Source: Candidatus Magasanikiibacteriota bacterium (GTDB taxonomy: Bacteria > Patescibacteriota > Patescibacteriia > Magasanikbacterales > GWA2-37-8). From it: a stretch of 64,000 nucleotides of DNA. Shown piece by piece: positions 35,592-62,740 of this stretch. Made by a program: the position numbers and the translations under genes. Location: assembly GCA_016189025.1 (NCBI GenBank), contig JACPGS010000018.1, positions 6,921 to 70,920 on the forward strand, written 5' to 3'. Positions within the stretch are counted from its first letter, which is position 1. The number at the start of each line of letters is the position of its first letter. The notes under the pieces were generated by a model. That model was not told the origin of the DNA. It did not search any database and saw nothing but the letters and a program-made list of their open reading frames with translations.

Positions 35592-35777
35592 AACTGCAGA
35601 AGAATGCTAACTGTATAGTTGTTCGCCCGGTCGCTATCGCTATTGCTAAATTTAACCTGGTTGGTCGCGGCAGACACTCTTTGGGTGCTCCCCCCGCCTA
35701 CGCGGGGGCTGCGCGCCCAAAGACACTCGTCTGCCGCGCCCTGATGCTAACTGGTTATTTCTATTCTTCTACAGTCT
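35592..35777. mobile_element. Family-B MITE-like element, full length with terminal inverted repeats
   Basis: Left TIR aactgcagaagaatgc, right TIR tattcttctacagtc. The internal stem is GGCAGACACTCTTTGGG…CCCAAAGACACTCGTCTGCC, with inner hairpin CCCCCCGCCTACGCGGGGG. Confidence 0.6.
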
Positions 35778-35784
35778 TAAACTC

Positions 35785-46200: not shown

Positions 46201-46203
46201 ACT

Positions 46204-47277
46204 ATGCTGGACACGGAAGTAGAAAAAATTGTGGCGGCCCTTGACTGGGAAAAACGCTGGATGGAGCGTTTTACCCTTTTTGCCACATCATTAATCGGCG
46301 ACGTCTATTTTTTTGGCTGTCAGGAGCAATTGGGAGTGGCATTCAACCGGATGTTCTTTGTTTACCAGGAAGGGATGGTTACGTGTTATCAGCTGATTTC
46401 AGAAAATACGGTCTTTGGCAACGCGCTGGCGCGCCGTTTGGAGGCGGATCACCATCTGGTTGATGGGTGGAACCGGGAAGTTAAAGATAAAGTTGATGAG
46501 GTTCTTAGTTTGGTTGCCGCCTACGAAGGCACCCTTTTTGAAGAGTCACACTACCTGGCTTTTGAGCACGCTTTTCGCGCACTGCAGCCACCCTTCGTTC
46601 GCTTAACCAGAGTCGCCAATTATCTGGCGCCGTCTTGGCACAATACTTTGTTGCCGCCACTGAATGCCATGCGTCTGGCCACGGAAACGGTATACGGCCG
46701 CGTTGATTCGTTTGTGCAGCGATCATTACGGCAATTAGCCGGCCAGATTGGCCGCGATCCTGATTTGGTAGAACTATTATATCATTATGAAGTGAGGGAA
46801 TTTGTTAAGCAGGGCACTTTGCCACCGGATGCCGAATTAAGAAGCCGTGCGCCGGTTAGCGGATTATATTTTGAAAACGGACGGCAATTCTTTTGTGATA
46901 GTAAAGAAGTTGGCTTATTTCAACGCCTGGTTGCCGATAAATTTGGCTCCCAGGATGGTATTGTTCGCGGGGTCACTGCGGTTCCCGGATATGTGAAGGG
47001 TACGGCGCGAATAATTTTTGACCCCCAAAAACCGGGTGTCTTTAATGACGGCGATATTCTGGTGACTAACATGACGTATCCGGAGTTTGTGCCCCTGATG
47101 AAAAAAGCCGGGGCGATTGTTACCGATGGCGGCGGCATTTTGTGCCACGCGGCCATTGTTGCTCGAGAATTGGGCAAACCCTGCCTGATCAATACCCAGG
47201 TAGCCACCTCGACTTTTCACGATGGTGAGCAGGTGGAGGTAGATGCGACGCAAGGAACAATCAAGAGAGCGGCATAG
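46204..47277 (+). CDS. PEP-utilising-enzyme swivel-domain protein, paralog 2 (shorter, distinct N-domain)
   Basis: …GVTAVPGYVKGTARII…ILVTNMTYPEFVPLMKKAGAIVTDGGGILCHAAIVARELGKPCLIN…GEQVEVDA. Confidence 0.8.
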   Translation: MLDTEVEKIVAALDWEKRWMERFTLFATSLIGDVYFFGCQEQLGVAFNRMFFVYQEGMVTCYQLISENTVFGNALARRLEADHHLVDGWNREVKDKVDEVLSLVAAYEGTLFEESHYLAFEHAFRALQPPFVRLTRVANYLAPSWHNTLLPPLNAMRLATETVYGRVDSFVQRSLRQLAGQIGRDPDLVELLYHYEVREFVKQGTLPPDAELRSRAPVSGLYFENGRQFFCDSKEVGLFQRLVADKFGSQDGIVRGVTAVPGYVKGTARIIFDPQKPGVFNDGDILVTNMTYPEFVPLMKKAGAIVTDGGGILCHAAIVARELGKPCLINTQVATSTFHDGEQVEVDATQGTIKRAA

Positions 47278-47280
47278 CCT

Positions 47281-48804: not shown

Positions 48805-48865
48805 AGAAACGAATCTGGCGAAAAAATTTTGTTATCAGGAGCAGGGAATTTTTAGCCTGAATAAT

Positions 48866-50374
48866 ATGGCCCAGGACTACACCATCTTCGTCCGCGATTT
48901 TCAGACCAGCCTGTTTCCGCAGTATATTTTAACGCACTTGTGGAACACCAGCGGCGTGGTGAATACCAAAGCGCAGATTGGCATGGCGAATCGGAACAAA
49001 GTGCTGGAGTACATTATTCCGCCGGGCGATTGGGAACATTTGCAAACGCAGGTACATGAGCGAACTGCCGCCGACCGAAATTTTATTCCCCAGGCCGTGC
49101 GCCAGGCGCGGGCGGCCGTAGATGCACTTAATGAGTATACAGAACAGCAAATAGCGCAGAAAGATTTGACCTGCGCCAGCAACGAAGAATTAGCCGAGAT
49201 TTACCGGCGCTATTTTGAGCTGAACATTCCCTGTTATGGTTACGGCAACATCATTTTTATTATTGAATTCGGCGAGCGCGCTTATTTTAGCAATCAAATC
49301 AAGCAGCTCTTGGCCGCGCGTGCGCCGGAACAGCCGGCAGCGTATTTTACTTTACTGACCACTCCGGCGGAACCGCACATTTTTCAGGAGCAAAGTTTGG
49401 CTCTGCTCCAGCTGGCCAGCGCCATTGAATTGCAAACCGAGATTAAAGATTGGTTTTTGGCAAACGCCGGCGCGGGCATTGAACATCAGCTATTAGCGAA
49501 ATATCCGGCAGTGCTTGAGCAGTTCCAAAAACATCGCGCTGCCTACTACTGGCTGTTTTACAGCTGGGAAGGCCCGGCGCTGACGGTGGGCGATTTTGTG
49601 ATGTTTGCCGTGGATATTTTACGGCGCGGGTCGGCCGGCGCGCAGTTAGCAGAAAAAAAGGCAGAACAGGCCACGCTCGGCACGCGTCAGGAAAAGATTA
49701 TGCAGGAGCTGCACTTTTCCGAAGAAGAGCGCTGGTGGGTAAAAATGGCGCAACTATGCGCCGCGTTCCAGCCCTATCGCAAAGCGCGGCAATTCAAATC
49801 CTGCAGCCACATGGAAAAGTATTTCCGGGAGGTAGCGCGGCGATTATATATCAGTCTGGATCAGGCGCGGTATCTTACTCATTACGAAGTTGCCGAGGCG
49901 CTACGCAAGGGCGAAGTAGACACTAACCTGCTAAACGAACGCCGCAAATTTTTTGTGTATATTTTTGATAATAACCAGCCGCGGTGTCTTACCGGTTCCC
50001 CAGCCGAAGCGTGGTATCAAGAACACGTGGCACAAGAGATGCATCAATTTTCCGGAGAACTACGCGGCACGGTCGCCTGCCCGGGCCGGGCCACGGGAAA
50101 AGTGCGGATGGTGAACAGTTACGAAGAAGGCCAACAGTTTCAGCCAGGTGAAATTTTAGTTTCATTTTCTACTAACCCCACCCTTCTGCCGGCGATGCGC
50201 CTGGCCGCGGCGATTATTACCGAAGAAGGCGGGCTCACCTGCCACGCGGCCATCGTCAGCCGCGAGCTCAACATCCCTTGCGTGGTGGGAATTAAGGGGA
50301 TTGTTTCCGGACTGCAAACTGGCGAAACAATAGAAGTGGATGCGATAAAAGGGTTAGTTAAAAAATTATCCTGA
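48866..50374 (+). CDS. PEP-utilising-enzyme swivel-domain protein, paralog 4
   Basis: …GTVACPGRATGKVRMV…ILVSFSTNPTLLPAMRLAAAIITEEGGLTCHAAIVSRELNIPCVVG…GETIEVDA. Confidence 0.8.
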   Translation: MAQDYTIFVRDFQTSLFPQYILTHLWNTSGVVNTKAQIGMANRNKVLEYIIPPGDWEHLQTQVHERTAADRNFIPQAVRQARAAVDALNEYTEQQIAQKDLTCASNEELAEIYRRYFELNIPCYGYGNIIFIIEFGERAYFSNQIKQLLAARAPEQPAAYFTLLTTPAEPHIFQEQSLALLQLASAIELQTEIKDWFLANAGAGIEHQLLAKYPAVLEQFQKHRAAYYWLFYSWEGPALTVGDFVMFAVDILRRGSAGAQLAEKKAEQATLGTRQEKIMQELHFSEEERWWVKMAQLCAAFQPYRKARQFKSCSHMEKYFREVARRLYISLDQARYLTHYEVAEALRKGEVDTNLLNERRKFFVYIFDNNQPRCLTGSPAEAWYQEHVAQEMHQFSGELRGTVACPGRATGKVRMVNSYEEGQQFQPGEILVSFSTNPTLLPAMRLAAAIITEEGGLTCHAAIVSRELNIPCVVGIKGIVSGLQTGETIEVDAIKGLVKKLS

Positions 50375-50381
50375 TAACATT

Positions 50382-51947
50382 ATGGCGATGGCCAAGGCGC
50401 TACGGCGCGATCGCTGGATTGTCGGCAATGAAGAAGACGGCACTAATTTGTACGCGCTCGGTTTGTATACGCCGATGTTTATTGTTGATTTTCCCCGGCT
50501 GGCCCAAGCGCCGCCTTGCTATCACGTATTTGAATTCAAAGGCGGCCATATGCGCTGGCTGGTGCCGGAAAATCACTCGCTCGCAATCGCCCGGCTTTTG
50601 TTGGAGCGCGTCCTCCGGCGTCCTAATTATTTTGGCGAAATCAGGCAAAAATTGGCGCGCATTTGCCATCAGGCTTATGCTTTTGGCAGGCAAGTTTTGC
50701 GGCTGAAAGTAGGAACTATCAGCGACGCCAGGTTATTATCACTACTGATGCGTTTTCAAAAATTGCAACGCACCATTATCGCCTATGGCATGATTTCTAC
50801 TTTAGTTGAAATACCCCACAGCCAGTTTGTTAAGCACCTGGAGAATTTTCTGGCTGATCACGTCAGCAAAATTAGCGCGCCGCCTGGCGCCCCTGAATAT
50901 TTTAGTATTCTTTCGGCGATTCCCGAAGAGAGTAGGCAGCGCCAGGAAGCCAAAAGTTTGCTGCGGTTATTGCAGACGGTGAAAAAATCTAAAAAATTAT
51001 TTAACGCCGTCGCCTCACTTAAACCAGGGGAGGGTAGCAAAAAATTTTTACGGCCTCCAGGCGATCCGGCAATGTTATCCTTTTATCGGCAGCTCAATTA
51101 TCATGTCAAAGAATTCTGCTGGGCGTATTATGGCTACGAAGGACCGGCGTACGGTATTGACCGCCCCCTTTCCGAGCTTGCCCAACTGCTCTCCGATAAA
51201 GTAGACCCGGCGGCGGAGCTAAAGCGTTTAGCCCGGGAGCGGGCGCAAATCAGGCCGGCGACCAAAATAGCCGAGCGTACCCTGAAGCTATCGGCTTACG
51301 AGCGCGCCTTATTCCAGGCCCTGCGCGATACGGTGTTTATGAAGCTTTATCGCAAAGACGCCATGACTTTTGGGTTTTATTCCGCCGAGTCATTGCTTAA
51401 AGAATTGGCGCGCCGGGCCGGCATTGCTTTAGCCGCCGCTAAATGTTTGGCGCCGGGCGAATATGCGCGGGCATTGAGGCAGGACAAAAAATTGATTGCC
51501 GAACTCTATCGGCGGATTCCGTATGCCGTATATGCGGCGGATTCTCTTAAACCGCGGGTATTATCCGGTAGTCGCGCCCGCCGGTTTATTAAAAGTATTT
51601 ACCGCGAGGAAGCGGTCGGCGATGTCCGCGAGCTCAAAGGCCAGGTGGCCTGTTTAGGGCACGCTACCGGCGCGGTAAAAATTATCAACGTCGCGGCGGA
51701 AATGGGCAAAATGAATAAGGGCGATATTTTAGTGTCCATCGCCACGATTCCCGATATTGTGCCGGCGATGAAAAAGGCGGCCGCGATTGTTACCGAGCAG
51801 GGCGGCATTACCTCTCACGCCGCCATCGTCAGCCGCGAACTCGGCGTCCCCTGCGTCATCGGCACCAAAATAGCCACCAAAGTATTTAAGGACGGGGATT
51901 TGGTAGAGGTGGATGCCATTGAGGGAATTGTGTACAAGCTCAAGTGA
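50382..51947 (+). CDS. PEP-utilising-enzyme swivel-domain protein, paralog 5
   Basis: …GQVACLGHATGAVKII…ILVSIATIPDIVPAMKKAAAIVTEQGGITSHAAIVSRELGVPCVIGTKIATKVFKDGDLVEVDA. Confidence 0.8.
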   Translation: MAMAKALRRDRWIVGNEEDGTNLYALGLYTPMFIVDFPRLAQAPPCYHVFEFKGGHMRWLVPENHSLAIARLLLERVLRRPNYFGEIRQKLARICHQAYAFGRQVLRLKVGTISDARLLSLLMRFQKLQRTIIAYGMISTLVEIPHSQFVKHLENFLADHVSKISAPPGAPEYFSILSAIPEESRQRQEAKSLLRLLQTVKKSKKLFNAVASLKPGEGSKKFLRPPGDPAMLSFYRQLNYHVKEFCWAYYGYEGPAYGIDRPLSELAQLLSDKVDPAAELKRLARERAQIRPATKIAERTLKLSAYERALFQALRDTVFMKLYRKDAMTFGFYSAESLLKELARRAGIALAAAKCLAPGEYARALRQDKKLIAELYRRIPYAVYAADSLKPRVLSGSRARRFIKSIYREEAVGDVRELKGQVACLGHATGAVKIINVAAEMGKMNKGDILVSIATIPDIVPAMKKAAAIVTEQGGITSHAAIVSRELGVPCVIGTKIATKVFKDGDLVEVDAIEGIVYKLK

Positions 51948-51955
51948 TTTGTGTT

Positions 51956-52360
51956 ATGGAAAAAGCAGAGATGTGGTTAACTCGTTTTATTGCTTGGGCG
52001 AGAATTAAAACCAAAATTCATCTTGCCGAACGGGAAATATATTTTCGTGAGGGAGAAATTTGGTGGACTAGCTTAGGCGTGAACATTGGCCATGAGCAAG
52101 ATGGGAAGAATGAATATTTTGAACGGCCGGTATTGATTTTAAAGAAGTTTGGCAGGTATACTTTATGGGCTGTTCCTTTGTCGAGCCGCCTTAAGTATAG
52201 TCCTTATTATTTTCAATATACTTACCATGGGAGAAATTATTCTGCTTTACTTACCCAATTACGGTTGATTAGTAGTAAAAGGTTATTGAGAAAGGTTGGA
52301 GTGATTGATGTTATGGTATTTCGGGCTATTAAAGAAAAGATAAAAAAATTATTACAATAA
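51956..52360 (+). CDS. MazF/PemK-like endoribonuclease toxin-fold protein in a low-G+C insert
   Basis: REGEIWWTSLGVNIGHEQDGKNEYFERPVLILKKF…WAVPLSS compares with the PemK/MazF pattern RGDIYWVDFGPPVGSEQGGRRPALVVS…PLT. Confidence 0.45.
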   Translation: MEKAEMWLTRFIAWARIKTKIHLAEREIYFREGEIWWTSLGVNIGHEQDGKNEYFERPVLILKKFGRYTLWAVPLSSRLKYSPYYFQYTYHGRNYSALLTQLRLISSKRLLRKVGVIDVMVFRAIKEKIKKLLQ

Positions 52361-52540
52361 AAAACGATTCCCGCTCTTCTAGAGTGGGAATCTCGGAGCT
52401 TCTCTCGTAAAAGAGAAGCCATTTGACAGAAGCAGCTTACGCCACTTCGCCAGGTATATTACCAAAGTAAAAATATTTGTCAAGTAAACTATCCACATAG
52501 TCCAATCAAGGAATCTAAACTATAGTTTATAGTTCCTACT

Positions 52541-52822
52541 ATGGCACTGGGGCAGCTGACGTTAGCGGTATACGGCGACGTGCAGGGCGTGGGGTTCCGC
52601 TGGTTTGTGCAAGAGCAGGCGGTTAAGCTCGGTCTAGTCGGCTGGGTACGCAATAATCCGGATGGTACGGTCGGCGTCGTTGCCCAAGGAGTCGAGGAAA
52701 AGTTGCGTGAATTTTTGGCGCTCTGCCGCCACGGCCCGGGTTTTGCCCGCGTGCGCGAGGCGGTGGAAGAGTGGCAGGAAATTCCTAAACTGGACTTTGT
52801 CGATTTTGAGATTAAGTTTTGA
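52541..52822 (+). CDS. acyP: Acylphosphatase
   Basis: VYGDVQGVGFRWFVQEQAVKLGLVGWVRNNPDGTVGVVAQG is the canonical acylphosphatase signature (VxGxVQGVxFR … GWVxN). Confidence 0.85.
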   Translation: MALGQLTLAVYGDVQGVGFRWFVQEQAVKLGLVGWVRNNPDGTVGVVAQGVEEKLREFLALCRHGPGFARVREAVEEWQEIPKLDFVDFEIKF

Positions 52823-52834
52823 TAGTGTTGCCAT

Positions 52835-54370
52835 ATGAATCAGCGACAGTTTAAGAAATATTTGGGCGAGGCAGAGGCGCTGCATAGTGAATTCGGGGTA
52901 ACACCGCTGACGATTACACTAATTCAGCACGGTTTTCATCATCCTTTGTTAAAGAAGTATTTGCGTGAATGGTATTTGCCGACGTCGGTAGTTGAATGTA
53001 TCGGCGATAAAATTAATTGGTTTATTAGTGCCGATTTTTTGCGTGCCCAGGAACATTTTGTCGTTGATACCATCAAAAGAGATCGTTCTCTGGTAAAAAC
53101 CGTCATCCGCGAGTCAAGACGACAAGGGAAGGCCATTGATTTAATTGTTCGTAAGATTGACACAGCGTCCAGCAAGGGAGTTACTGCTAAGCGAGCTGCC
53201 CTCTTATTGATCAAGTTATTTGCGGCCATGGAGCAGCTTTGTGCGTATGGTTTTATTGCAGTTTTAAGTGATTTATATTATTTTACTTTCACTCGCGAAC
53301 TAACTACGCTAATAGAACAATATGCCGCTTCGCAAGGATCAGCGCAACCCGTCAAAGAATACGTGAGCATCTTGATAACTCCTACTGTAAAGACCGTTAC
53401 CTGGAAATATAAGCAGGCCTTGTTTCAATTAGCACTGAAGATAGCAAGATTAGGGATAACCCGTCCCGCTAATCCGCCCAAATTAATTATCAGTAACAAA
53501 ATATTGTTAAAGCAAGCTCAACAAATCGTTCGTGAATTTTATGCCGTAAATTATGGTCATCGCGGTCCGGCACTGACTCTTAAAGCAATAATTTCTGAAG
53601 TCGCCGATCTCGTTAGCAAAAATAAAGTGCATCGCGCCTATCGCGCCTTTATATCCGAACATACCGCTATCCGAGCCAAACAATGTCGTTATATTCGCCG
53701 GTTAAAACTTAGCAAACAAGCGGTATATTTACTAGAAGCTGCCAAACAGTTTATCTATATTAAAGGATTTCGTTTAGAAAAACTTTATCAATCCTATGCC
53801 GCCATTGATCGGTTATTGTCTCAAGTGACTGATCATAAAATATCGTTAGATAATCTTAAACGTTGTTCTAAGTTTGAAGTACTGCGCTTCTTAAAAGATG
53901 GCAAGCTGCCGACAGCCCGCGAGTTAACCAGACGTACAAGACACTTGACGTATACGGCTTGGCAACATACCAAAGCCAAAATTCGCACTGGCGCCGCCGC
54001 TGGTCGTTATCTTCAGACTTTCGTCGCTAAAACCAAAGATAATAAAGTACGTTTTTCCGTTCACGGTAACATTGCCTGCGCGGGACGAGCGACCGGCACG
54101 GCAAAAATTGTCCAAAGCGGCAAAGATATGCAAAAAGTACGTGAGGGAGATATTTTAGTGGCGGTGCAAACTATTCCTGAATTGCTACCGGCGATGAAAA
54201 AAGCCGCTGCTTTTGTTACTGATATTGGAGGCATCACCTCCCACGCAGCAATCGTTAGTCGCGAAATGGGCAAGCCCTGTGTAATTGGCACGCGAGTGGC
54301 TACCCAGGTGTTTAAAGACGGAGATTTAGTGGAAGTAGATGCCATTAAAGGTATCGTGCAAAAGATATAG
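52835..54370 (+). CDS. PEP-utilising-enzyme swivel-domain protein, paralog 6 (AT-richer, most divergent)
   Basis: …GNIACAGRATGTAKIV…ILVAVQTIPELLPAMKKAAAFVTDIGGITSHAAIVSREMGKPCVIG…GDLVEVDA. Confidence 0.8.
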   Translation: MNQRQFKKYLGEAEALHSEFGVTPLTITLIQHGFHHPLLKKYLREWYLPTSVVECIGDKINWFISADFLRAQEHFVVDTIKRDRSLVKTVIRESRRQGKAIDLIVRKIDTASSKGVTAKRAALLLIKLFAAMEQLCAYGFIAVLSDLYYFTFTRELTTLIEQYAASQGSAQPVKEYVSILITPTVKTVTWKYKQALFQLALKIARLGITRPANPPKLIISNKILLKQAQQIVREFYAVNYGHRGPALTLKAIISEVADLVSKNKVHRAYRAFISEHTAIRAKQCRYIRRLKLSKQAVYLLEAAKQFIYIKGFRLEKLYQSYAAIDRLLSQVTDHKISLDNLKRCSKFEVLRFLKDGKLPTARELTRRTRHLTYTAWQHTKAKIRTGAAAGRYLQTFVAKTKDNKVRFSVHGNIACAGRATGTAKIVQSGKDMQKVREGDILVAVQTIPELLPAMKKAAAFVTDIGGITSHAAIVSREMGKPCVIGTRVATQVFKDGDLVEVDAIKGIVQKI

Positions 54371-54377
54371 ATTTTCT

Positions 54378-54998
54378 ATGATTGCCAAAAAAAATATTAA
54401 ATTCATTATCTTTGACGCCTACGGCGTCTGCCTTACCGGCGGGTATCCGGATACCTGCCGGTATCTGGCCAAAAAGTTTAACCGCGATTGGCAAGATATT
54501 TACGCTGTCCTTTATACCAAATATTTCAATCAGGCCGCTACTAAGCAAATCACCCAACAGGCGGCCTGGGCCAAGGCGCTTAAAGAGCTTAATTTTCCCT
54601 TAACAGTGGCCGCGGTTAAGCGGATTCATTATCGTCTGATGGGTTTGAATTGGCCGGTACTGAAAATTGTGCAAAAAATAAGCGAAAAAGTTCCTGTTCT
54701 GTTGTTAAGCAAAAATACGCGGAGCCAATTCAAAGACATTAATAATAAATTTCCCCGGTTGAGGCAAATTTTTGGCCAGCACATTATTAATACCTGGGAG
54801 TATAACCTGCCTAAAGCCAGCCCGGAAACGCTAGCGATGATTTTTAAGCGATATCATATTACCGACCCGGCCACGGTAGTGAGCATTGATGACCAAGACA
54901 ATAATTTAGTGGCGGCGCGGGAATTGGGCGTTAATGCTATTTTGTATAGAAATTTTGGTCAATTCAAGCGCGAGCTTGCTCGGCTGATTAACATTTAG
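54378..54998 (+). CDS. HAD-superfamily phosphatase
   Basis: Motif I IIFDAYGV and motif IV SIDDQDNN. Start placed at the internal ATG 54378. Confidence 0.65.
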   Translation: MIAKKNIKFIIFDAYGVCLTGGYPDTCRYLAKKFNRDWQDIYAVLYTKYFNQAATKQITQQAAWAKALKELNFPLTVAAVKRIHYRLMGLNWPVLKIVQKISEKVPVLLLSKNTRSQFKDINNKFPRLRQIFGQHIINTWEYNLPKASPETLAMIFKRYHITDPATVVSIDDQDNNLVAARELGVNAILYRNFGQFKRELARLINI

Positions 54999-55002
54999 AG
55001 CT

Positions 55003-56529
55003 ATGCGCCAGAAATATCATCAGGGTGCATGGTCGCTCTTGTCGCAGCGCCAGCGAATGAGCCCGTTTCCCAATTACTTGTCCATGGAAGCGGTGTGCCG
55101 CGAGATGAAGCAGTTCGTCGGTATCGCGTTGCGCGACGTTATTTTATTTTTCCAGGGCAATATCATGTTTGCTTTTCAGCCTTTGCTGTCGCACCAGCGC
55201 GCGGCGCGCTTGATTGCCGACCGCGTGCAAAAAAATCCGCGCCTGTATGCTGGTTTGATTAAAAAACAACATGGCTACGGAAAAAATTTAGTAAACTTTG
55301 CCCGGCAGGCGGCGCGCCAGACTAGGCGGGGCAAGGCTTCTCCCCAGCAATTATGCGATTGGTTTACCGGCTACGCCCAGCGATATAAATTAGTTTATGC
55401 CTCGTACGGGTCGGTTTGGACAATGGAAGACGAGCTAGTCGGAGATCTTTATGCGCTGGTGGAAAAGCGAATAAAAGATCCGCTTGAGGCCAGCAATATC
55501 TTAAATACGCTCACCAAACAGCCGCTGGCGATGGTGGTCACCCGCGAACGCCAGGCATTATTGAAAATGGCAATGAGCATTGCTTTACATCAGGAATGGC
55601 AGCAGGCGGTGAGGGCCGGCGAGTGGTCAGGGATTAAAAAGTATCAGCCGCTCCTCCGACTGATTACCGCGCACCAGAAAAAATTTTACTGGATCACCCG
55701 CGATTATGAAGATCCAATTTTGACTAATGAAAAAATTATTGAGCGGCTGCGGCAGGTATTGGCAGGTGATGTTGCCCAAGAATATCGTCAATTAACAGAT
55801 GCTTTAGCCAATGACCTCGCGGCGAGAAAGCGCTATGAAAAAGAACTACGGCTCACGGCGGCAGAACGCCAACTCTTTGCCGCGATGCGCGATGCCGCCC
55901 ATCTTAAAGAGCTGCGCAAACAATATGTTTCATCATCGCTTTATCATTTTGATTCAGTACTGGCCGAGATCGGGAAACATTTGTATTTAAGCATCAAGCA
56001 AGTGCGCTTTATGCATACCGCAGATGTCGCCGCGGCCCTGCTTAAAGGTCGGGATTTAACCCGGGCGCTTAACGAGCGGATGAAACTATCAATGTGGCAT
56101 ACGGTGGATGGCCGCGATACCAAAGTCAGTGTCGGCCCGGAGGCCGCGGCAATGTTTGCCCGGTTTTGTACGGTGGATAAGAATACCAGAGAATTTACCG
56201 GCATGCCGGTTTCCCCTGGGTTGGCGCGCGGCCCTGCTAGGTTGGTGATGAATCCGGACGAGTGCGACAAGGTTCAGAAAGGTGATATTATTGTGAGCAT
56301 TCAGGTGGTGCCGAGTTTTTCCACCGCTATTATCAAATCCGCCGGCATGGTCTGCGACGGCGGGCACGGCATCACTTCGCACCCGGCCACCCTGGCCCGC
56401 GAAGCCAAAATACCCTGCGTTATCCAAACCCGCTTTGCGCGGGAGGTAGTGAAAGATGGTGATATTCTGGAGGTAGATGGGTATCAGGGTGTGGTACGAA
56501 TTATTGACAAAAAGGATGCCGGGAGATGA
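55003..56529 (+). CDS. PEP-utilising-enzyme swivel-domain protein, paralog 7
   Basis: …GMPVSPGLARGPARLV…IIVSIQVVPSFSTAIIKSAGMVCDGGHGITSHPATLAREAKIPCVIQ…GDILEVDG is a variant His motif (SHPATLARE). Confidence 0.75.
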   Translation: MRQKYHQGAWSLLSQRQRMSPFPNYLSMEAVCREMKQFVGIALRDVILFFQGNIMFAFQPLLSHQRAARLIADRVQKNPRLYAGLIKKQHGYGKNLVNFARQAARQTRRGKASPQQLCDWFTGYAQRYKLVYASYGSVWTMEDELVGDLYALVEKRIKDPLEASNILNTLTKQPLAMVVTRERQALLKMAMSIALHQEWQQAVRAGEWSGIKKYQPLLRLITAHQKKFYWITRDYEDPILTNEKIIERLRQVLAGDVAQEYRQLTDALANDLAARKRYEKELRLTAAERQLFAAMRDAAHLKELRKQYVSSSLYHFDSVLAEIGKHLYLSIKQVRFMHTADVAAALLKGRDLTRALNERMKLSMWHTVDGRDTKVSVGPEAAAMFARFCTVDKNTREFTGMPVSPGLARGPARLVMNPDECDKVQKGDIIVSIQVVPSFSTAIIKSAGMVCDGGHGITSHPATLAREAKIPCVIQTRFAREVVKDGDILEVDGYQGVVRIIDKKDAGR

Positions 56530-56545
56530 TTAATTATTGTGAATT

Positions 56546-56580
56546 AAAAAATCCGTTTGCCTAGACAAACGGATTTTTTA
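56546..56580. terminator. Bidirectional rho-independent terminator
   Basis: aaaaaATCCGTTTGcctagaCAAACGGATtttttag. Confidence 0.6.
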
Positions 56581-56708
56581 GTCATCTCACAATTCTTCAG
56601 AGAATAATCGTAAGACGAACCGGGCGACGTGATGACAGTACATTGTCATCACGCCGCCCGAGCTCTGGGGATGAGTTGCCCCGGGCGGGGCAGAGGAGGG
56701 GAGGGGGG

Positions 56709-57389
56709 CTACTTGGTGGGGGTGGGGAAGGTTGCCGGCGGCGTGAACTTCTGGACGCTGATGACGTTGCCACCGTCATCCAGAAAGAACAGGAAGGCCT
56801 GGCACTCCTCCAGGCCGAGGAGCTCCGGCTTGGCGCCCACCTGCGCCGCGTACAGGCTGATCGCCGGCTCGTGGTCGAAGGTGATCACCAGTCTGCCCTC
56901 CGGGAATGCGTTGCGGACGAAGTCCGTGGCGTTCGCGAGCGCCCGGGCAACCGGCTGCGGGCCGAAGAGGCTGGGGTCGGCCGCGAGTCGCCGGAGCATG
57001 TCGCTGACCGACAGGCCCTCGGCCTTCCAGTGGGCGTGCAAGTTGGGGTGCTTGCTGCCCGCAGGAGCGGGCGCTTTCTTGACGCTCGCGTCGAGGTTGA
57101 GGCGCGAATCACGGACGATCTGCTCCGCGTTGGTCACGAGGAAAGTCGTGAGGAGCGACCGCGGGTACTCGCTGCACGCGTACATGCACTGGTGGCCGAA
57201 CTGGCGCATGAGCGACCCACCGATGAGTACCGCGTACTCATTGCGCACCGCGACGCACAGCGCGGCACCGCTGCTCGTCAGCGTCCGCGTCTCGTTCGGC
57301 CCGTCCTGGACCGAATGCGAGTGGCGGCCGCGCACCACGCAGCGAACCGCGTCTTCGGGGATCTGGATTTCGGAAGCCTTGGTCGCCAT
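56709..57389 (-). CDS. Divergent histidine-phosphatase-superfamily (PGAM/SixA-like) protein in a G+C-rich segment with strong SD
   Basis: AAAGGAGGG lies 5 nt upstream of the ATG. VRGRHSHS…LTSSGAA resembles the RHGxx…LTxxG motif, and LVITFDHEPAISLYAA resembles the second His motif. The assignment is tentative. Confidence 0.4.
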   Translation of the reverse strand: MATKASEIQIPEDAVRCVVRGRHSHSVQDGPNETRTLTSSGAALCVAVRNEYAVLIGGSLMRQFGHQCMYACSEYPRSLLTTFLVTNAEQIVRDSRLNLDASVKKAPAPAGSKHPNLHAHWKAEGLSVSDMLRRLAADPSLFGPQPVARALANATDFVRNAFPEGRLVITFDHEPAISLYAAQVGAKPELLGLEECQAFLFFLDDGGNVISVQKFTPPATFPTPTK

Positions 57390-57634
57390 GGCGACCCTCC
57401 TTTTTTGTGGTTTCCCGGCCATTTGTGCCTGCTGCCGAATCATTTCGGTTCAGGTGTGCCTTGGCCAAAGGCGAATAGGTTCTCAAGAGAAATTACTATC
57501 TCCCCTGGGAACCTACCGCCTTTGACTTATGGTAGCCCTTGATTGTAAAAGTACTCATCCGTTATGACTCTAGGATAGCAGCGCGTTAAGCACTGCTTTT
57601 TCATCATCATAACGTCATATAATAGCACATTTTC

Positions 57635-57663
57635 TTGCTTTTGTCAAGAGGGTGTGCTATAGT
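57635..57663 (+). promoter_or_regulatory. Candidate promoter TTGCTT-17-TATAGT with TTGTCAAGAG in the spacer
   Basis: The spacer starts tTTGTCAAGAG, the same placement as at 59901 and 25734. Confidence 0.4.
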
Positions 57664-57727
57664 ATTTTGGCTAATTTCAGCAAAAATTTTATTCAATAAA
57701 ATGGCTTAAACTAGCCAAAATTTTTAT

Positions 57728-58600
57728 ATGCCTAGAGAATTATCAGCCGAACCACAACGGGAGCAAGAACGCCGGCCGGAAAATTTTATCACGGCCTATT
57801 ATATGCGCCACGGTGAAAGTTCATCTGATAAAAATGATCCGTTGCGCGGGTTAACCGATAAAGGGATAGAGCAGGTACGAAAGGCAGTAGAGCGGGTAGC
57901 GTCAGAAATTCCCGATAAGAATTCACAAATTCGGCTATATAGCAGTGGCAGCGAACGCACCCGGCAGCAGTGCATTGTGGCGGCTGCGGTGTTACGCGAT
58001 GCCAATTTTACCAATATCACGATTGATGCCAATTCTTTGCCCGAAAAGCGCGCCGAGTTAACCGGCAAGGGAGTGCGCTTCACCAAAATCCTTTCCGGCG
58101 ATGAATTAAAAGAAGCGCAGGCAGCGACGATTGCCCAGTTAGGTTTGCGCCAAGAGGGCCCCGGCATTGGCAAAAGAATCGCGGAACTCAAAGCGCCTAA
58201 AGAATATCCGACTAAACTTAGGGGGTTGGAGGCTGATACCGGGATTAGTGCGGTAGTCCATTGGCTAACGGATAAAGAAGTGCCGGCCGGAGCAGAATCG
58301 CGAGCGCAAAAAGCTGCCACGGTAGCTAAAGCAGTAGAGATTGCCAATCGCTGGGCAGAGCACATGCGCCGCGCTGCGGAAAAAGGCAAAGAAGTTAAGC
58401 CAATGGTGGCTTTAGCATTCGGTCATTCTTCGGCGCTCACTGCCTATGGCGCTGATGTTTTTGGCTGGCAAGGTGAAGAGTTGGCAGAGGTAGAAAACGC
58501 CGAAGGATTAAAAATAGATTTCTCTGGTATTGCCGACGAAACACCCCGTATTCAGCCATTCGGCGAGAAGATTGAGGCCAAGGTAAATCCTATCGGATAA
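57728..58600 (+). CDS. Histidine-phosphatase-superfamily protein (phosphoglycerate-mutase / SixA-like)
   Basis: FITAYYMRHGESSSDKNDPLRGLTDKGIEQ is the RHG catalytic motif, and VALAFGHSSALTAY is the second catalytic His. Confidence 0.8.
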   Translation: MPRELSAEPQREQERRPENFITAYYMRHGESSSDKNDPLRGLTDKGIEQVRKAVERVASEIPDKNSQIRLYSSGSERTRQQCIVAAAVLRDANFTNITIDANSLPEKRAELTGKGVRFTKILSGDELKEAQAATIAQLGLRQEGPGIGKRIAELKAPKEYPTKLRGLEADTGISAVVHWLTDKEVPAGAESRAQKAATVAKAVEIANRWAEHMRRAAEKGKEVKPMVALAFGHSSALTAYGADVFGWQGEELAEVENAEGLKIDFSGIADETPRIQPFGEKIEAKVNPIG

Positions 58601-58641
58601 TCAAAGAGATTGTATCCAAAAATTCCCTTGATATTTATAAA

Positions 58642-58672
58642 ACCCTGGACTTTTTGGTTCAGGGTCCTTTTT
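58642..58672 (+). terminator. Rho-independent terminator
   Basis: ACCCTGgactttttggttCAGGGTccttttt. Confidence 0.5.
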
Positions 58673-58705
58673 AATATCTCACTCGTGAGAAACTAAAGAG
58701 GGGTG

Positions 58706-58739
58706 CCGAGCGGGGGGAGATGAACTTCCCCCCGCTCGG
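58706..58739 (-). terminator. Hairpin terminator downstream of the minus-strand G+C-rich gene
   Basis: CCGAGCGGGGGGAgatgaacTTCCCCCCGCTCGG, a 13-bp perfect stem. Confidence 0.5.
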
Positions 58740-58756
58740 TAGATTGGGTGAGGTTG

Positions 58757-59662
58757 TTAGCGGGCGCCGTTGGTCGCGCCGGCGTCCGTGGCCCGACGGC
58801 CGTTGCCCTGACGCCTCCGGTTCGACGGGGTGATGCGCGGCGGGTTGGAGAACGACGTCGTGGCCGGCGCGGGCGTGGGCGTGGGCGTGGGCTCCTGCGG
58901 CGGCTCCGCCGGCGCTGCCTCCGGCGCGGGGACGACGGGCGCGGCGGCGGCGGGGATGCGCTCGTCATCGGGCGACGGGAGCGGATCACTGCTCGCGCGC
59001 ACCTCGGGCGGCGGGGTGGGCGGGGCGGTGGCGAACGGCTCGGTCGTCTCCGGCGCCTGGACCGCCGGCTCGGGGATCGCCTGGAAGGCGAGGTTGGGAT
59101 TGGCGATCGCCTCGGCGGGGCGGCTGGCCTCGGTCTCGGTCAGCATGACCACGAGCGGCGCGTCGAAGTGCGTCAGCCCGGGGAAGCCGAGCTTCAGCCG
59201 GTGGGCCGGCGCGATGACGACGAGCGCCTGGGCCCCGGCCTCGGCCGCCGACTTCACGGCCTCGCTGATGGCGGCGCGTACCGTCTGCTCGAGCTGTTTC
59301 CACACCTGCCCCAGCGCCCGCGCGTCGCTCGGCTCCAGGTAGGAGACGCGGCGCGCGTAGGCCTCGTTGAGCGAGCCGTCCTGCGCCAGCAGGTGCTGGA
59401 GCAGGTCGTTGCCGTACCGGTGGCAGGCGTTGAACCGCTGGTCGCCGGCCACGCCGTCGTGCTCCACCCAGATGGGGTGGAGCCCGCGGCCGAGGGCGGC
59501 GTTGACCGGCTCGCTCTCGGCGATGCCGGTCGGACCGGTCCAGCGCAGCTGGGCGATGCCCTGCTGGTCGCAGTGGTCGTAGATGCGGGCGCTCGCCGCC
59601 CGCAGGGTGGCGAAGTCGATGACTTCGCCGAGGAGGGGGAGGGGAACGAGGAAGAGTTTCAT
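58757..59662 (-). CDS. Hypothetical protein with Pro/Ala/Thr-rich low-complexity C-terminal tail; very G+C-rich
   Basis: The N-terminal ~170 aa have a normal composition and no recognised motif. The opposite-strand ORF is Arg/Gly junk. GGAGAT SD. Confidence 0.45.
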   Translation of the reverse strand: MKLFLVPLPLLGEVIDFATLRAASARIYDHCDQQGIAQLRWTGPTGIAESEPVNAALGRGLHPIWVEHDGVAGDQRFNACHRYGNDLLQHLLAQDGSLNEAYARRVSYLEPSDARALGQVWKQLEQTVRAAISEAVKSAAEAGAQALVVIAPAHRLKLGFPGLTHFDAPLVVMLTETEASRPAEAIANPNLAFQAIPEPAVQAPETTEPFATAPPTPPPEVRASSDPLPSPDDERIPAAAAPVVPAPEAAPAEPPQEPTPTPTPAPATTSFSNPPRITPSNRRRQGNGRRATDAGATNGAR

Positions 59663-59894
59663 TGGTATCTCCGCGCTTGGCCGTGGTATTGCTAGGTTCC
59701 TTCTCCGGCCGTTAAGAAGGTAGCTAGCCAGTGAAGATCTTCTTCACCGTTTAGCTACCTTCTTTAATCATTTTTTGGGGCGCTTTCGGAGTTAGGATGT
59801 CAAGGTACTCACCGGTTACGGCTGGCAGCCTAGCGCTTAAGTGGGGCGCCGGAATAGGCCGCACCGCCATAACTTTACAGCTTACCCCCTGCCT

Positions 59895-59922
59895 TTACTT
59901 TCGTCAAGAGCTTGAGTATAAT
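59895..59922 (+). promoter_or_regulatory. Candidate promoter TTTACT-16-TATAAT with tCGTCAAGAG in the spacer
   Basis: The GTCAAGAG octamer lies 3 nt after the -35 hexamer, identical to its placement at 57643. Confidence 0.4.
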
Positions 59923-59941
59923 GGCTTGTGCATAACTTAAT

Positions 59942-60955
59942 ATGTCGCATTTAAAATTTTTTCCCGATCTTACCAAAAAAGATGTGGCAATAGCCGGCGG
60001 CAAGGGCGCGTCGCTCGGCGAACTGACGCGAGCCGGAATTCCGGTGCCGCCCGGGTTTGTGGTGCTGGCGGCGGCTTGGGACAGATTTTTAGAAGAAACC
60101 GATCTTAATGCCGAAATTATGGCGCGACTCAAAGAGGTTAATCCGGCTGATACCAATTCAGTGGATCGGGCCAGCAATGTTTTGCGTGATGCGATTCATG
60201 ATCGGTCGCTGCCGGCTGATTTAGGCGAGGAGATTTTGGCGGCGTTTGACGAGTTAGGGAGTAAAAAGTCGGGGGCTCGGAATGACAGCGCGTGTTTGGT
60301 AGCGGTGCGATCGAGCGCGACCGCCGAGGACTCGGCAGTGGCGAGCTGGGCCGGTGAGCTGGAAACGTATTTGAACACCAGGCGGGAAAATGTTTTAGAG
60401 CGAGTGAAACTATGCTGGTCGTCGCTTTTTACCCCGCGCGCTATTTTTTATCGCCACGAAAAAAATCTGATTGATCATTATGTATCGGTCGCGGTAGTAG
60501 TGCAGCAAATGGTGCAATCAGAAATCTCCGGCATTGCTTTTACCGTGCATCCGGTAACCGAGGACCGGGACCAGATGATTATTGAAGCGGGATTTGGCCT
60601 CGGCGAAGCGATTGTCGGCGGCCAGATTACGCCGGACTCGTATGTAGTAAGCAAGAGCGAGATGAGTATTATTGATATTAATGTTAGTACCCAGACCAGA
60701 AAGTTAGTGAAAAAGGTAAAAGGGGGAAAGGGACAAACCGACGAGGAAAATAAGTCTAACGAATGGGTAGATTTGAGTGAAGCGGAAGGAGGCCGGCAAA
60801 AGTTAAGCGGCCAGCAGATTATTGAGCTGGCGGCGATTTGCCAGAGGATTGAAAAACATTACGGATTCCCCTGCGACATTGAGTGGGCGTATGAGGGGGG
60901 AAAATTCTACGTTACCCAAAGCCGGCCGATTACGACCTTAAAAATCCGCGGTTAA
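59942..60955 (+). CDS. Stand-alone PEP-synthase / pyruvate-phosphate-dikinase-type N-terminal ATP-binding (ATP-grasp) domain protein
   Basis: …DVAIAGGKGASLGELTRAGIPVPPGFVV…CLVAVRSSATAEDSAVASWAGELETYLN…SGIAFTVHPVT…QMIIEAGFGLGEAIVGG…GFPCDIEWAYEGGKFYVTQSRPIT matches PPDK_N motifs throughout. It ends without a His domain or a PEP-binding domain. Confidence 0.8.
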   Translation: MSHLKFFPDLTKKDVAIAGGKGASLGELTRAGIPVPPGFVVLAAAWDRFLEETDLNAEIMARLKEVNPADTNSVDRASNVLRDAIHDRSLPADLGEEILAAFDELGSKKSGARNDSACLVAVRSSATAEDSAVASWAGELETYLNTRRENVLERVKLCWSSLFTPRAIFYRHEKNLIDHYVSVAVVVQQMVQSEISGIAFTVHPVTEDRDQMIIEAGFGLGEAIVGGQITPDSYVVSKSEMSIIDINVSTQTRKLVKKVKGGKGQTDEENKSNEWVDLSEAEGGRQKLSGQQIIELAAICQRIEKHYGFPCDIEWAYEGGKFYVTQSRPITTLKIRG

Positions 60956-61031
60956 CAGCAATTGACACGTTGGTAATCAGTATTGTATTATTGAATAGTC
61001 GGGGAGGCTTAATTATTTAATTTTTTGCGGT

Positions 61032-61484
61032 ATGCCTCCAAGCAATACCAAACAGACAGCCGGGGAAAGTCAAACGCTCGGGGAGATTTTAGAAATCGTC
61101 CAATTTATTAAGGACAACGCGGCTAGCCAGGTTAGCGTGGATAAGTTAGACGAACGCGTTAGCTCTCTTGAGGACAAGGTGTCATCGCTTGACGATAAGG
61201 TGTCGTCACTTGATAGCAAGGTGTCATCGCTTGATAGCAGGGTGGCTGCTTTAGAAAATGCAGTAATCCAGGGATTTGCCGAAATGCACCGCCGTTTTTC
61301 TCAAGTGGATACGGAATTGGATTCTATTTATCGCGAATTGGAAACTATTAAAAAAGAATTACAGCAGTTAGATAAACGGGACGCCGAGGATGCCAATGCT
61401 TTGGCTCATGACGTGCTGACTTTAAGGGAGCGTTTGGAACAATTGGAACAGCGGCTGCGACAGCTGGAGTTAGCGCGTGCTTAG
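61032..61484 (+). CDS. Coiled-coil protein with 9-aa tandem repeats ((D/S)KVSSLD)x4
   Basis: …ERVSSLEDKVSSLDDKVSSLDSKVSSLDSRVAALEN… is encoded by about 27-bp tandem nucleotide repeats at 61155-61262. Confidence 0.5.
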   Translation: MPPSNTKQTAGESQTLGEILEIVQFIKDNAASQVSVDKLDERVSSLEDKVSSLDDKVSSLDSKVSSLDSRVAALENAVIQGFAEMHRRFSQVDTELDSIYRELETIKKELQQLDKRDAEDANALAHDVLTLRERLEQLEQRLRQLELARA

Positions 61485-61491
61485 GCTTCTC

Positions 61492-61521
61492 TTGACAGCC
61501 AGGGCAAAAGTATGTTATACT
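61492..61521 (+). promoter_or_regulatory. Candidate promoter TTGACA-18-TATACT followed by a ~125-nt structured leader
   Basis: Consensus -35 TTGACA. The leader contains the hairpin GGTTCCCAAAAaggtcgtttcactatagtcgttctcaaaccacaTTTTGGGAACC. Confidence 0.45.
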
Positions 61522-61644
61522 GTAGGTCAATATTGGGCAATCGCGTGGTAAATCAGCAAAAACCAAGCGTAGGTTCCCAAAAAGGTCGTTTCACTATAGT
61601 CGTTCTCAAACCACATTTTGGGAACCTAAACGCAAAAAAGAGTT

Positions 61645-61974
61645 ATGGCATTTGATTCTCCCCGGCAGATGTACCCGGTCAACGAGAAGTGCGCCGGTTG
61701 CGGCGTGGCGATTACCGAGCTGCCCTTCCAACCGACGGCGGGTCGCCCGGTGTACTGCACCGATTGCAATCGTCAGTATCGCGATCGGCGGCGCGGCGGT
61801 GGTGGCGGTGGCGGCGGCATGAGCCGCGGTCCGCGCCAGATGTACGCCGTAGACCTGCAATGCGCCGGCTGCGGCACGGCTATTACCGAGCTGCCGTTCC
61901 AGCCCACCGGCGATCGTCCGGTTTATTGCCGCACCTGCCTGGCCGCTAAACGCGGCAGCGCGATGGCAGCCTAA
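61645..61974 (+). CDS. Small protein with two tandem CxxC…CxxC zinc-ribbon repeats joined by a poly-Gly linker
   Basis: PRQMYPVNEKCAGCGVAITELPFQPTAGRPVYCTDCNRQY is repeated as PRQMYAVDLQCAGCGTAITELPFQPTGDRPVYCRTCLAAK, with RRRGGGGGGGGM between them. Confidence 0.55.
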   Translation: MAFDSPRQMYPVNEKCAGCGVAITELPFQPTAGRPVYCTDCNRQYRDRRRGGGGGGGGMSRGPRQMYAVDLQCAGCGTAITELPFQPTGDRPVYCRTCLAAKRGSAMAA

Positions 61975-62020
61975 AGTTGTCCATTGTCAAAAACAAAAGC
62001 CCGCGGTATAATTACGGCGG

Positions 62021-62088
62021 GTTTTTTGTTGTCATCCCCGCGTAAGCGGGGATCCATATTGAATTATGACTCTGGATTCCCGCTTTCG
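62021..62088. repeat. PE palindromic element immediately upstream of (and falsely extending) the HD-domain ORF
   Basis: gtcatCCCCGCGtaaGCGGGGatcc…ggattCCCGCtttCGCGGGaatgac has the same architecture as the copy at 26196..26280. Confidence 0.55.
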
Positions 62089-62119
62089 CGGGAATGACAG
62101 CGGTAGCGTCTTAATCATT

Positions 62120-62740
62120 ATGAGCACTCAAGAACAGCGTGCCTTAATCAGTTACACCAAACAAAAAGTAGCGCGGCATTTTCGCCATCATCGCGACCCC
62201 TCGCACGGCGCGGCGCATGCCGAGCGGGTGCGGCGATTGGCCGCCTATTTATCTGCCCGCGAGGGACAGCCGGCATTTTTAGCGGAACTCGCGGCGCTGC
62301 TGCACGACATCGGCCGTCGCGTAGAGCGCCGGCGCATTCCGCTAACGCACCACGAGCTTTCTTATCGGTTGTGTCGAGAGTGGCTTCGTGCCGATCGCCG
62401 GTTTGACGCGCTAACGCCGGCGCAAAAGCGCGAGGTGCTTTATGCCGTTCGTTATCACGGCAATGACGACGCCAACGATTACCGGAGCGCTGCTCTGGTG
62501 CGCGATGCCGATAAACTTGACGCCTTTGGTAAAATCGGGCTGCGGCGCTCGGTCATTCACTGCCAGACCTCGGAAGTTGCTTTGCCGCTTAACGTCAGTT
62601 TGCGCCTGCGCTACCATCTGCTGCATTTTTTTAAGACCGCGGCGGCGCGCCGTCTGGTGCGGCAGCGGCGCCTGATGGAGCCGATTGCCGATTATCTGCG
62701 CCGGCTGAATCGGAAATTGATTAAGCCGATCCGGTTGTAG
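62120..62740 (+). CDS. HD-domain phosphohydrolase
   Basis: HSHGAAHAERV…LLHDIGR (H…HD motif). Start placed at the ATG 62120 (MSTQEQ…) because the ORF-track start lies inside the PE repeat. Confidence 0.75.
   Translation: MSTQEQRALISYTKQKVARHFRHHRDPSHGAAHAERVRRLAAYLSAREGQPAFLAELAALLHDIGRRVERRRIPLTHHELSYRLCREWLRADRRFDALTPAQKREVLYAVRYHGNDDANDYRSAALVRDADKLDAFGKIGLRRSVIHCQTSEVALPLNVSLRLRYHLLHFFKTAAARRLVRQRRLMEPIADYLRRLNRKLIKPIRL

Follow-up and report, generated by a model that had tools for sequence, protein, structure and literature searches.

Phosphatase genes conserved in a putative split dikinase island of a Magasanikbacteria bacterium and its relatives

Background

Small-molecule dikinases with ATP-grasp, substrate-binding and swivel His modules are known as single polypeptides of ~860-900 aa, among them rifampin phosphotransferase (RPH; 5hv1, 5fbs) and the enzymes of the PigC/RedH/HapC type. 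In the hydroxyphenylethanone kinase HpeHI of Rhodococcus the ATP-grasp and the swivel/rifampin-binding-like subunits reside on separate proteins, and phenylphosphate synthase (PpsAB) is a relative (PMC12167813). Activity of HpeHI requires its two components only, and the Hpe pathway phosphorylates, carboxylates and then dephosphorylates (PMC12167813). The present study concerns a 64,000-nt stretch of DNA (the window; local coordinates are used throughout) from a bacterium of the candidate phyla radiation (CPR), Ca. Magasanikbacteria, in which the region 52541-62740 forms, judged by its sequence, the downstream half of an island for a split small-molecule dikinase. A HAD hydrolase and two proteins of the histidine-phosphatase fold, a long and a short form, are encoded there, and comparison of genomes shows them to be conserved accessory parts of such islands.

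The island has in common with HpeHI/PpsAB a separate ATP-grasp protein and a partner that combines a rifampin-binding-like domain with a GGxT[SC]H swivel. It differs in the number of partners, one ATP-grasp gene standing for seven strongly diverged paralogs (1 to 10 or more in other arrays), in the hosts, which are genome-reduced CPR and DPANN organisms with no aromatic catabolism genes near the arrays, and in the histidine-phosphatase-fold and HAD genes conserved in the array. RPH and the PigC/RedH/HapC type possess the same ATP-grasp, substrate-binding and swivel His modules, but the ATP-grasp is a separate gene here; in the literature searched no associated phosphatases were noted for these enzymes, unlike the arrays described below. 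No description of these CPR arrays or their phosphatases was found in the searchable literature, the sole related mention found being 'rph-like' genes in a CPR resistome survey (PMC8651080). The component families and the core dikinase subfamily are known; phosphatases that are conserved, oriented and paralog-specific in the arrays are new. The two-component dikinase subfamily is extended well beyond aromatic catabolism. Among the histidine phosphatases, SixA acts on the phospho-His of NPr, a carrier of the phosphotransferase system (PTS), and on the catalytic phospho-His (pHis) of Ndk (PMC7948535, PMC6282199, PMC12934123).

Results and discussion

Swivel paralogs and the ATP-grasp protein

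The dikinase array consists of seven plus-strand paralogs (44752-56529), each ending in a PEP-utilizers (PF00391) phospho-His swivel domain. The paralogs are pairwise 23-31% identical, and the catalytic His is invariant in GGxT[SC]H. Paralogs 1 (44752-46200), 2 (46204-47277), 3 (47281-48804), 4 (48866-50374) and 5 (50382-51947) matched PF00391 of Pfam with E values of 1e-23 to 4e-27, paralog 6 (52835-54370; 43% GC) with 2.4e-25 and paralog 7 (55003-56529), a member of an orthogroup with its own swivel signature, with 3e-14. The profile built from paralog 3 with its orthologues aligned to residues about 600-880 of rifampin phosphotransferase (5hv1/5fbs), a stretch that covers the latter half of the rifampin-binding domain and the swivel; the first ~235 paralog residues had no match to any solved structure in the profile comparison. 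Paralog 2 is a short form (357 aa, the other paralogs having 482-521 aa) in which about 125-165 N-terminal residues are missing. The arrays of other species also contain open reading frames (ORFs) of ~1.05-1.1 kb that encode this swivel domain (e.g., L003, L005, L008 and L009 of the related loci, which are labelled by L-numbers), hence the short form appears to be conserved and not a pseudogene.

A stand-alone ATP-grasp (PPDK_N) subunit of 337 aa is encoded on the plus strand at 59942-60955 (PF01326, E 1.8e-95). The protein covers the whole ATP domains of phosphoenolpyruvate (PEP) synthase and rifampin phosphotransferase end to end, matches also 9goj, and has no further domain. It is the single PPDK_N copy in the window, its gene has a promoter-like site of its own (a consensus match only), and from its domain content it is the presumed charger of all seven swivel paralogs. 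The same genes were called by gene callers on independent assemblies of this organism. The best database match of one paralog is a 100% identical protein of a Ca. Magasanikbacteria metagenome-assembled genome, and relatives stem from Patescibacteria/CPR and DPANN archaea. A reading of the region as a defence island was rejected: PADLOC, queried for known anti-phage defence, gave no match for paralog 3, the ATP-grasp protein, the HAD hydrolase, the acylphosphatase (AcyP) or either histidine phosphatase, and its output held generic HD/Cas10 and HerA similarities only.

An earlier note on this DNA had described a phosphatase-rich gene set in and around the array. Every gene named there was found in place and in the family assigned to it, by Pfam or, for a minus-strand gene, by fold. 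It had omitted the ATP-grasp gene, a MazF/PemK gene (51971-52360) and an orphan ORF (58757-59662), all of which lie within its coordinates.

Phosphatase genes in related arrays

The comparison set comprised ±10 kb around the paralog-3 orthologues of 80 other species, with 42-61% identity to paralog 3. An alignment of paralog-3 orthologues served as query in the locus search, and the six-frame ORFs of the loci were searched with the window proteins. Arrays of 1 to 10 paralogs are the rule among the related loci, and an ATP-grasp gene was within reach in 40-43 of the 80, depending on the score cut-off. Many CPR and DPANN organisms with tiny genomes spend 10-15 kb on such arrays, thus the system is probably important to their host-dependent life.

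A Pfam census of the 142 ORFs embedded in or abutting the arrays of the 80 species yielded 22 HAD, 15 His_Phos_1 and two HD proteins; the remaining array-embedded ORFs were of mobile or miscellaneous type (DUF4143/AAA_14, GIY-YIG, Bro-N, aminotransferases). As control, 118 size-matched ORFs (150-350 aa) of the same loci, all >2.5 kb away from any array gene, were examined. They contained at most two HAD and at most two His_Phos_1 proteins by Pfam, and none and one, respectively, with family-specific hidden Markov models for HAD and histidine phosphatase built here. The enrichment at the arrays over the controls corresponds to Fisher p values of <=7e-5 for HAD and <=4e-3 for His_Phos_1. Array-embedded ORFs of other species reached E values of 5.4e-26 (PF00702) and 1.3e-25 (PF13419).

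A histidine-phosphatase-fold gene of at least one subfamily was present at the array in 39 of the 80 loci. Complete loci with three or more paralogs had a histidine phosphatase in 17 of 24 cases, a count made before the seventh subfamily was added. The short forms were antiparallel to the array in all 41 instances, and one or two phosphatases per array were usual regardless of the number of paralogs. Relatives of both window proteins, looked up by their own sequence and independently of the paralog-3 anchor, were all located inside arrays next to PPDK_N. The same combination of three genes as in the window, an HAD gene plus the long and the short antiparallel phosphatase, was met again in distant lineages (L053, L069, L079, L082). 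The test of co-conservation with swivel arrays that the earlier note had proposed was positive for the HAD gene and both histidine-phosphatase-fold genes, whereas the acylphosphatase did not share it (3 of the 80 species, one clade; 0 of 80 loci in the reverse direction). A functional tie between some of the phosphatases and the swivel array, as proposed there, is supported by this co-conservation and by the histidine-phosphatase relatives being found only inside arrays. One coherent set of five to seven enzymes or a 'housecleaning' island, also suggested, was not borne out: AcyP, HD, HIT and Nnr have little or no conserved link to the array and should stay out of models of the system.

Several arrays of other species are interrupted by genes of the mobile-element type. 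Bro-N was found in the arrays of L010, L012, L013 and L026, GIY-YIG in L046, L069, L070 and L081, and DUF4143/AAA_14 in L010 and L026; in L169 (12095-15211) genes for a histidine kinase and a response regulator, as a pair, interrupt the array. Such arrays look like hot spots of insertion. Orthologues of paralog 3 with 42-50% identity also occurred in loci annotated as DPANN (Nanoarchaeota, Woesearchaeota, Micrarchaeota), 'Methanosarcinales' or 'archaeon' (L035, L042-L044, L048, L049, L051, L052, L056, L060, L066, L074, L078). In these the paralog is usually single-copy, mostly without an ATP-grasp gene within 10 kb, and no phosphatase is nearby. The archaeal occurrences probably reflect transfer between CPR bacteria and DPANN archaea. 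Many third-party-annotated metagenome-assembled genomes with CPR-type arrays are titled 'uncultured Gammaproteobacteria' or 'Methanosarcinales' (L003, L006, L008, L009, L012 and others), which looks like mislabelled taxonomy in public records.

Histidine-phosphatase-fold proteins

The long RHG histidine phosphatase (57728-58600, plus strand, 290 aa) matched PF00300 with 27.7 bits against a cut-off of 21.7. The match is confined to the N-terminal 64 residues, and ~130 aa are inserted between the core motifs. R27-H28-G29-E30, R77 and H233 were invariant in 10 relatives. An AlphaFold2 (AF2) model (pLDDT 82) resembled RosC, the mycobacterial glucosyl-3-phosphoglycerate phosphatase (GpgP), TIGAR and phosphoglycerate mutase (PGAM) with Foldseek E values of 5e-7 and weaker. 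The short protein (56709-57389, minus strand, 226 aa) was recognised by fold and by its catalytic residues RHS...R...DHE; it had no match in Pfam, NCBIfam or the PDB sequences. R22-H23 and H173-E174 were invariant in 10 relatives and R77 was kept in at least 90% of them. Its AF2 model (pLDDT 91) matched PGAM and GpgP with a Foldseek E value of 4e-9, a probability of 1.0 and a TM score of about 0.55. These structural matches to PGAM-like proteins, together with the conserved catalytic residues, substantiate the former assignment of the minus-strand gene as a divergent histidine-phosphatase-like gene.

Direct profile-profile comparison of the long and the short family was insignificant (probability 6%), and searches of the PDB sequences with both families returned noise only. 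Their kinship is seen through structure prediction and through intermediate subfamilies. Seven array-associated subfamilies were distinguished, five short ones, including the minus-strand type of the window, and two long ones, the 290-aa type and a type of 275-323 aa. The subfamilies are interlinked at hhalign probabilities of 84-97%, the short window type being linked at 87-96% to subfamilies that match PF00300, and the RH...R...H catalytic set is kept in all six subfamilies checked.

With about 160 aa, SixA is a minimal enzyme. The window phosphatases belong to the same superfamily (branch 1) and have the same RH...R...H set, but with 226 and 290 aa they carry inserted segments, and their nearest structures are small-molecule phosphatases and mutases. 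With the SixA equivalog model TIGR00249 the long protein scored 21.3 bits against a cut-off of 74.5, restricted to its N-terminal 60 residues, and the short protein had no match. The window histidine phosphatases are therefore not SixA orthologues.

The two genes are divergently oriented, and overlapping divergent promoter-like sites, which are consensus matches only, lie between them at 57619-57668. An imperfect inverted repeat (57622-57660) with a 16-pair stem overlaps both sites and is a candidate operator through which the two phosphatase genes may be controlled jointly or reciprocally. On the other side of the minus-strand gene, a terminator-like hairpin with an 18-bp stem (56620-56661) separates it from the convergent paralog 7 gene.

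HAD hydrolase and the pairing with paralog 7

The HAD-superfamily hydrolase (54378-54998, plus strand; 43% GC) matched PF00702 marginally, with 28.3 bits against a cut-off of 26.4. Its gene starts 7 bp after paralog 6 and ends 4 bp before paralog 7; AcyP, paralog 6, HAD and paralog 7 are tied by gaps of 3-12 bp. HAD genes were located at arrays in 22 of the 80 species, 17 of 24 genes lying within 4 bp of an array gene (usual gap 0-4 bp). The nucleophile Asp, the Ser/Thr of motif II, the Lys of motif III and the DD of motif IV were kept in 25 homologues (FDAYG, LLSKNT, LPKAS, DDQ). The best NCBIfam matches were the PRK09456 glucose-1-phosphatase and HAD-SF-IA-v3, both far below their cut-offs. 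With this YihX-type/HAD-IA v3 group the window protein has motifs II (S/T), III (K) and IV (DD) in common; it differs by lacking the Asp at position +2 and by a gene that is always operonic with swivel paralogs. Motif I reads D-A-Y-G in the window and D-x-[Y/H/N/A/T]-G, never with Asp at +2, across the 25 homologues. This Asp is the general acid/base of ordinary HAD phosphatases, and its absence suggests a substrate with a leaving group that needs no protonation. The motif points to a good leaving group, for example in an aryl, enol, acyl or glycosyl-1 phosphate or in a phosphoramidate.

Clustering of 327 paralogs by their N-terminal domain yielded a paralog-3 orthogroup of 84 members and a paralog-7 orthogroup that is present in 19 loci. 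The long 290-aa type occurred in 9 of these 19 loci and in 0 of 67 without the orthogroup (p 2e-7), and the paralog nearest to it was the paralog-7 orthologue in 9 of 9 cases. HAD was present in 12 of 19 loci with the orthogroup and in 12 of 67 without (p 3e-4). In 11 of 25 cases the gene directly downstream of HAD was a member of the paralog-7 orthogroup, and paralogs of other orthogroups were never found there. By these associations, paralog 7, the HAD and the long RHG phosphatase constitute one module. In the paralog-7 orthogroup (e.g., L006, L011, L055) the swivel signature reads GGxGITSHPATLARE, against GG[VIL]T[SC]HAAIVSRE in the other orthogroups. A one-residue insertion and Pro/Thr-Leu substitutions are located right at the catalytic His.

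Role of the phosphatases

By homology, the ATP-grasp protein would take the beta-gamma pyrophosphate of ATP and load it onto the swivel His of each of the seven paralogs, and each charged paralog would phosphorylate a small-molecule substrate of its own. We tentatively favour, with a little less than even confidence, that the phosphatases dephosphorylate the small-molecule products of this split dikinase, so that the HAD, long and short histidine phosphatases would remove the phosphate again. Phosphorylation could then be a transient activating or trapping step in a sequence of phosphorylation, transformation or use, and dephosphorylation, as in the hydroxyphenylethanone pathway. The preference is due to the pairing with a specific paralog, to the cap-like insertions, to structural neighbours that act on small molecules, and to the Hpe precedent. 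Several points weigh against it. A kinase and a phosphatase acting on one compound would constitute a futile cycle unless another step intervenes, and an obvious enzyme for such a step is not conserved in the arrays. In about half of the arrays the available sequence has no phosphatase, and fold matches do not determine the substrate. The short form, always antiparallel, is adjacent and divergent to the ATP-grasp gene in 15 of the 27 loci holding both, a pairing seen across five subfamilies, and it persists in minimal two-paralog systems (L009, L036). Being paired with the shared ATP-grasp gene and not with one paralog, it would fit better with a generic target, the phospho-His. Even the paralog specificity is compatible with a protein target, since paralog 7 deviates in the swivel motif itself. 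The alternative is a reading in which the histidine-phosphatase-fold proteins dephosphorylate the swivel, at the phospho-His or at the Thr two residues before it, and thus reset or throttle the dikinase in the manner of SixA. We consider this reading, whose phospho-His reset the earlier note had already suggested, doubtful, yet a serious rival because of the pairing of short form and ATP-grasp gene, the aberrant swivel motif and the SixA precedents, which are the pHis of Ndk and NPr of the PTS, whose Enzyme I has the same swivel domain family (PMC7948535, PMC6282199, PMC12934123). One or two phosphatases are usual whatever the paralog number, and the orthogroup with its own long phosphatase also has its own catalytic-His sequence, SHPATLARE versus SHAAIVSRE. 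Against a target on the swivel stand the TIGR00249 score (21 bits versus 74.5) with no SixA orthologues, the insertions carried by these proteins of 200-320 aa where SixA is minimal, and the top 50 structural matches, all of them small-molecule enzymes. The swivel is the most conserved part throughout the paralogs, yet the long form and HAD follow a single one of them, and hydrolysis of the charged catalytic intermediate would waste ATP.

It is improbable that the hydrolases are independent housekeeping or 'housecleaning' genes, serving metabolite repair along with Nnr, HIT and HD, that happen to lie near the array, and for the HAD and histidine-phosphatase genes this explanation is largely refuted by the frequencies at arrays and in controls (HAD 22/142 and His_Phos_1 15/142 versus <=2/118), by conservation over 80 species with anchor-protein identity down to 42%, and by the arrangement of the genes: 41 of 41 short forms antiparallel, HAD gaps of 0-4 bp, orthogroup-specific pairing, and relatives found in arrays only. 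It does hold for AcyP, with its three loci of one clade, an empty reverse search and non-orthologous neighbours, for HD (1/80, with its own promoter-like site), and for HIT (4/80) and Nnr (8/80), both almost only in the closest relatives; the GC spread of 36-75% and the mobile genes (GIY-YIG, Bro-N, DUF4143) in other arrays indicate that arrays gather unrelated insertions. Equally remote appears a role as catalytic helper, in which a phosphatase would strip the gamma-phosphate from pyrophospho-His and so provide irreversibility, or would act as mutase or phosphotransferase that passes the phosphate on. The pairing of a phosphatase gene with the ATP-grasp gene is in line with such a helper, and the histidine-phosphatase fold works via a phospho-His of its own and includes the mutases that are the top structural matches. 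Two-component dikinases can have a third stimulatory protein, as in PpsC of phenylphosphate synthase. However, RPH, PEP synthase and HpeHI release the gamma-phosphate without a helper of this kind, HpeHI needing its two components only (PMC12167813), and 13 of the 40 arrays with an ATP-grasp gene have no phosphatase in the sequence available. A wider scheme, rather unlikely in our estimate, would give CPR bacteria and some DPANN archaea a hitherto undescribed modular system with one ATP-grasp charger, up to ten interchangeable swivel-His carriers and a dedicated partner of the histidine-phosphatase fold, divergently transcribed from the charger, that discharges or gates the phospho-His of the carriers. 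Such a cycle of kinase and phosphatase on a catalytic phospho-His would resemble a phosphorelay more than a metabolic kinase, and paralog 7 with its altered swivel motif would have private phosphatases. Removal of phosphate from the small-molecule products, the favoured role, and reset of the phospho-His together pose a concrete either/or question, and the minimal set for a reconstitution is defined: paralog 7 with the ATP-grasp protein, together with the HAD and both histidine phosphatases, long and short.

Acylphosphatase, HD, HIT and Nnr genes

The acylphosphatase (52541-52822, plus strand; 57% GC) matched PF00708 with 89.5 bits against a cut-off of 22.5 (E 1.8e-25). The loop VxGxVQGVxFR (VYGDVQGVGFR) and the catalytic Asn (GWVRN) are present and invariant in a 4-sequence alignment. 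AcyP ends 12 bp upstream of paralog 6. The three other species with AcyP at the array share a 'PPDK_N-paralog-AcyP-148 aa' block and therefore represent one clade. In the reverse test, 80 metagenomic loci (467 kb) of the closest AcyP relatives, most of them probably non-CPR, contained no swivel or ATP-grasp gene. A role of AcyP as paralog-specific partner was rejected on this result and on the adjacent paralogs elsewhere, which are non-orthologous to paralog 6; the link of AcyP to the array is weak.

The HD-domain hydrolase (62120-62740, plus strand; PF01966, E 1.3e-11, 45.3 bits against 22) had one array-adjacent homologue in the 80 loci (L022, phmmer), and two embedded ORFs elsewhere carry an HD domain. 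Its gene sits behind two unrelated small genes, and its promoter-like site (61984-62012) is a consensus match only. HD is a neighbour and not a conserved part of the system.

Upstream of the array, the NAD(P)HX-dehydratase-type gene (Carb_kinase, Nnr; 43899-44705, plus strand; PF01256, E 4.5e-41) ends 46 bp before paralog 1. It recurs mostly in close relatives and abuts the first paralog in six of the eight species. Synteny explains this recurrence, and a weak operonic link may exist in addition. A second Nnr-like match (35099-35919) was discarded as a shadow ORF on the RecR gene. The HIT hydrolase (40978-41388, plus strand; PF01230, E 1.1e-24) was found upstream of the array in the closest relatives exclusively, separated from it by a HerA-like ATPase, and its recurrence is ascribed to shared ancestry, that is, ordinary synteny. 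This HerA/TrwB-like P-loop ATPase (698 aa, 41599-43695) gave weak PADLOC mad8/HerA matches. It is located directly upstream of the array in 16 of the 80 species (within L003-L028), several of which have an Nnr-type gene between the ATPase and paralog 1. Adjacent to the HIT gene, an ORF of 162 aa (40480-40968) matched the asparaginase N-terminal domain only (PF00710) and may be truncated or a stand-alone domain.

Other features of the region

A MazF/PemK-like toxin gene (51971-52360, plus strand; PF02452, E 1.2e-11; 36% GC) is inserted in the array directly after paralog 5 and is outside the phosphatase set. It had no homologue in the 80 related loci and no recognisable antitoxin upstream. The 180-bp gap after the toxin gene contains a strong minus-strand promoter-like site (52456-52483, TTGACA-16-TAATAT with TG).

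An orphan ORF of 301 aa with a Pro/Ala-rich tail (58757-59662, minus strand) has 74.7% GC in a window of 54% GC. It had no Pfam match, its sole match among 1.84 billion representative proteins was itself, and no promoter-like site was seen. The ORF lies back-to-back with the ATP-grasp gene, the position of the short antiparallel phosphatase in other species. A further phosphatase was considered here and rejected, as the ORF has no similarity to the six phosphatase families; that it is a gene at all is doubtful, and besides an orphan gene it may be a decayed remnant. The GC content differs from gene to gene between 51971 and 62740: 36% in MazF, 43% in paralog 6 and HAD, 57% in AcyP, 67% in the minus-strand phosphatase and in a zinc-finger gene, and 75% in the orphan ORF. 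This spread suggests a mosaic origin of the island.

An Rfam scan gave one sub-threshold match only (FtrB, 34 versus 66 bits), and the tandem repeats were trivial. A gene for a 150-aa coiled-coil protein, which holds a 21-bp tandem repeat (61167-61244), precedes the zinc-finger gene (61645-61974). The latter encodes a 109-aa protein in which eight consecutive glycines connect two treble-clef zinc-finger repeats (PF23477). Some relatives likewise have the zinc-finger gene and the coiled-coil gene downstream of the ATP-grasp gene.

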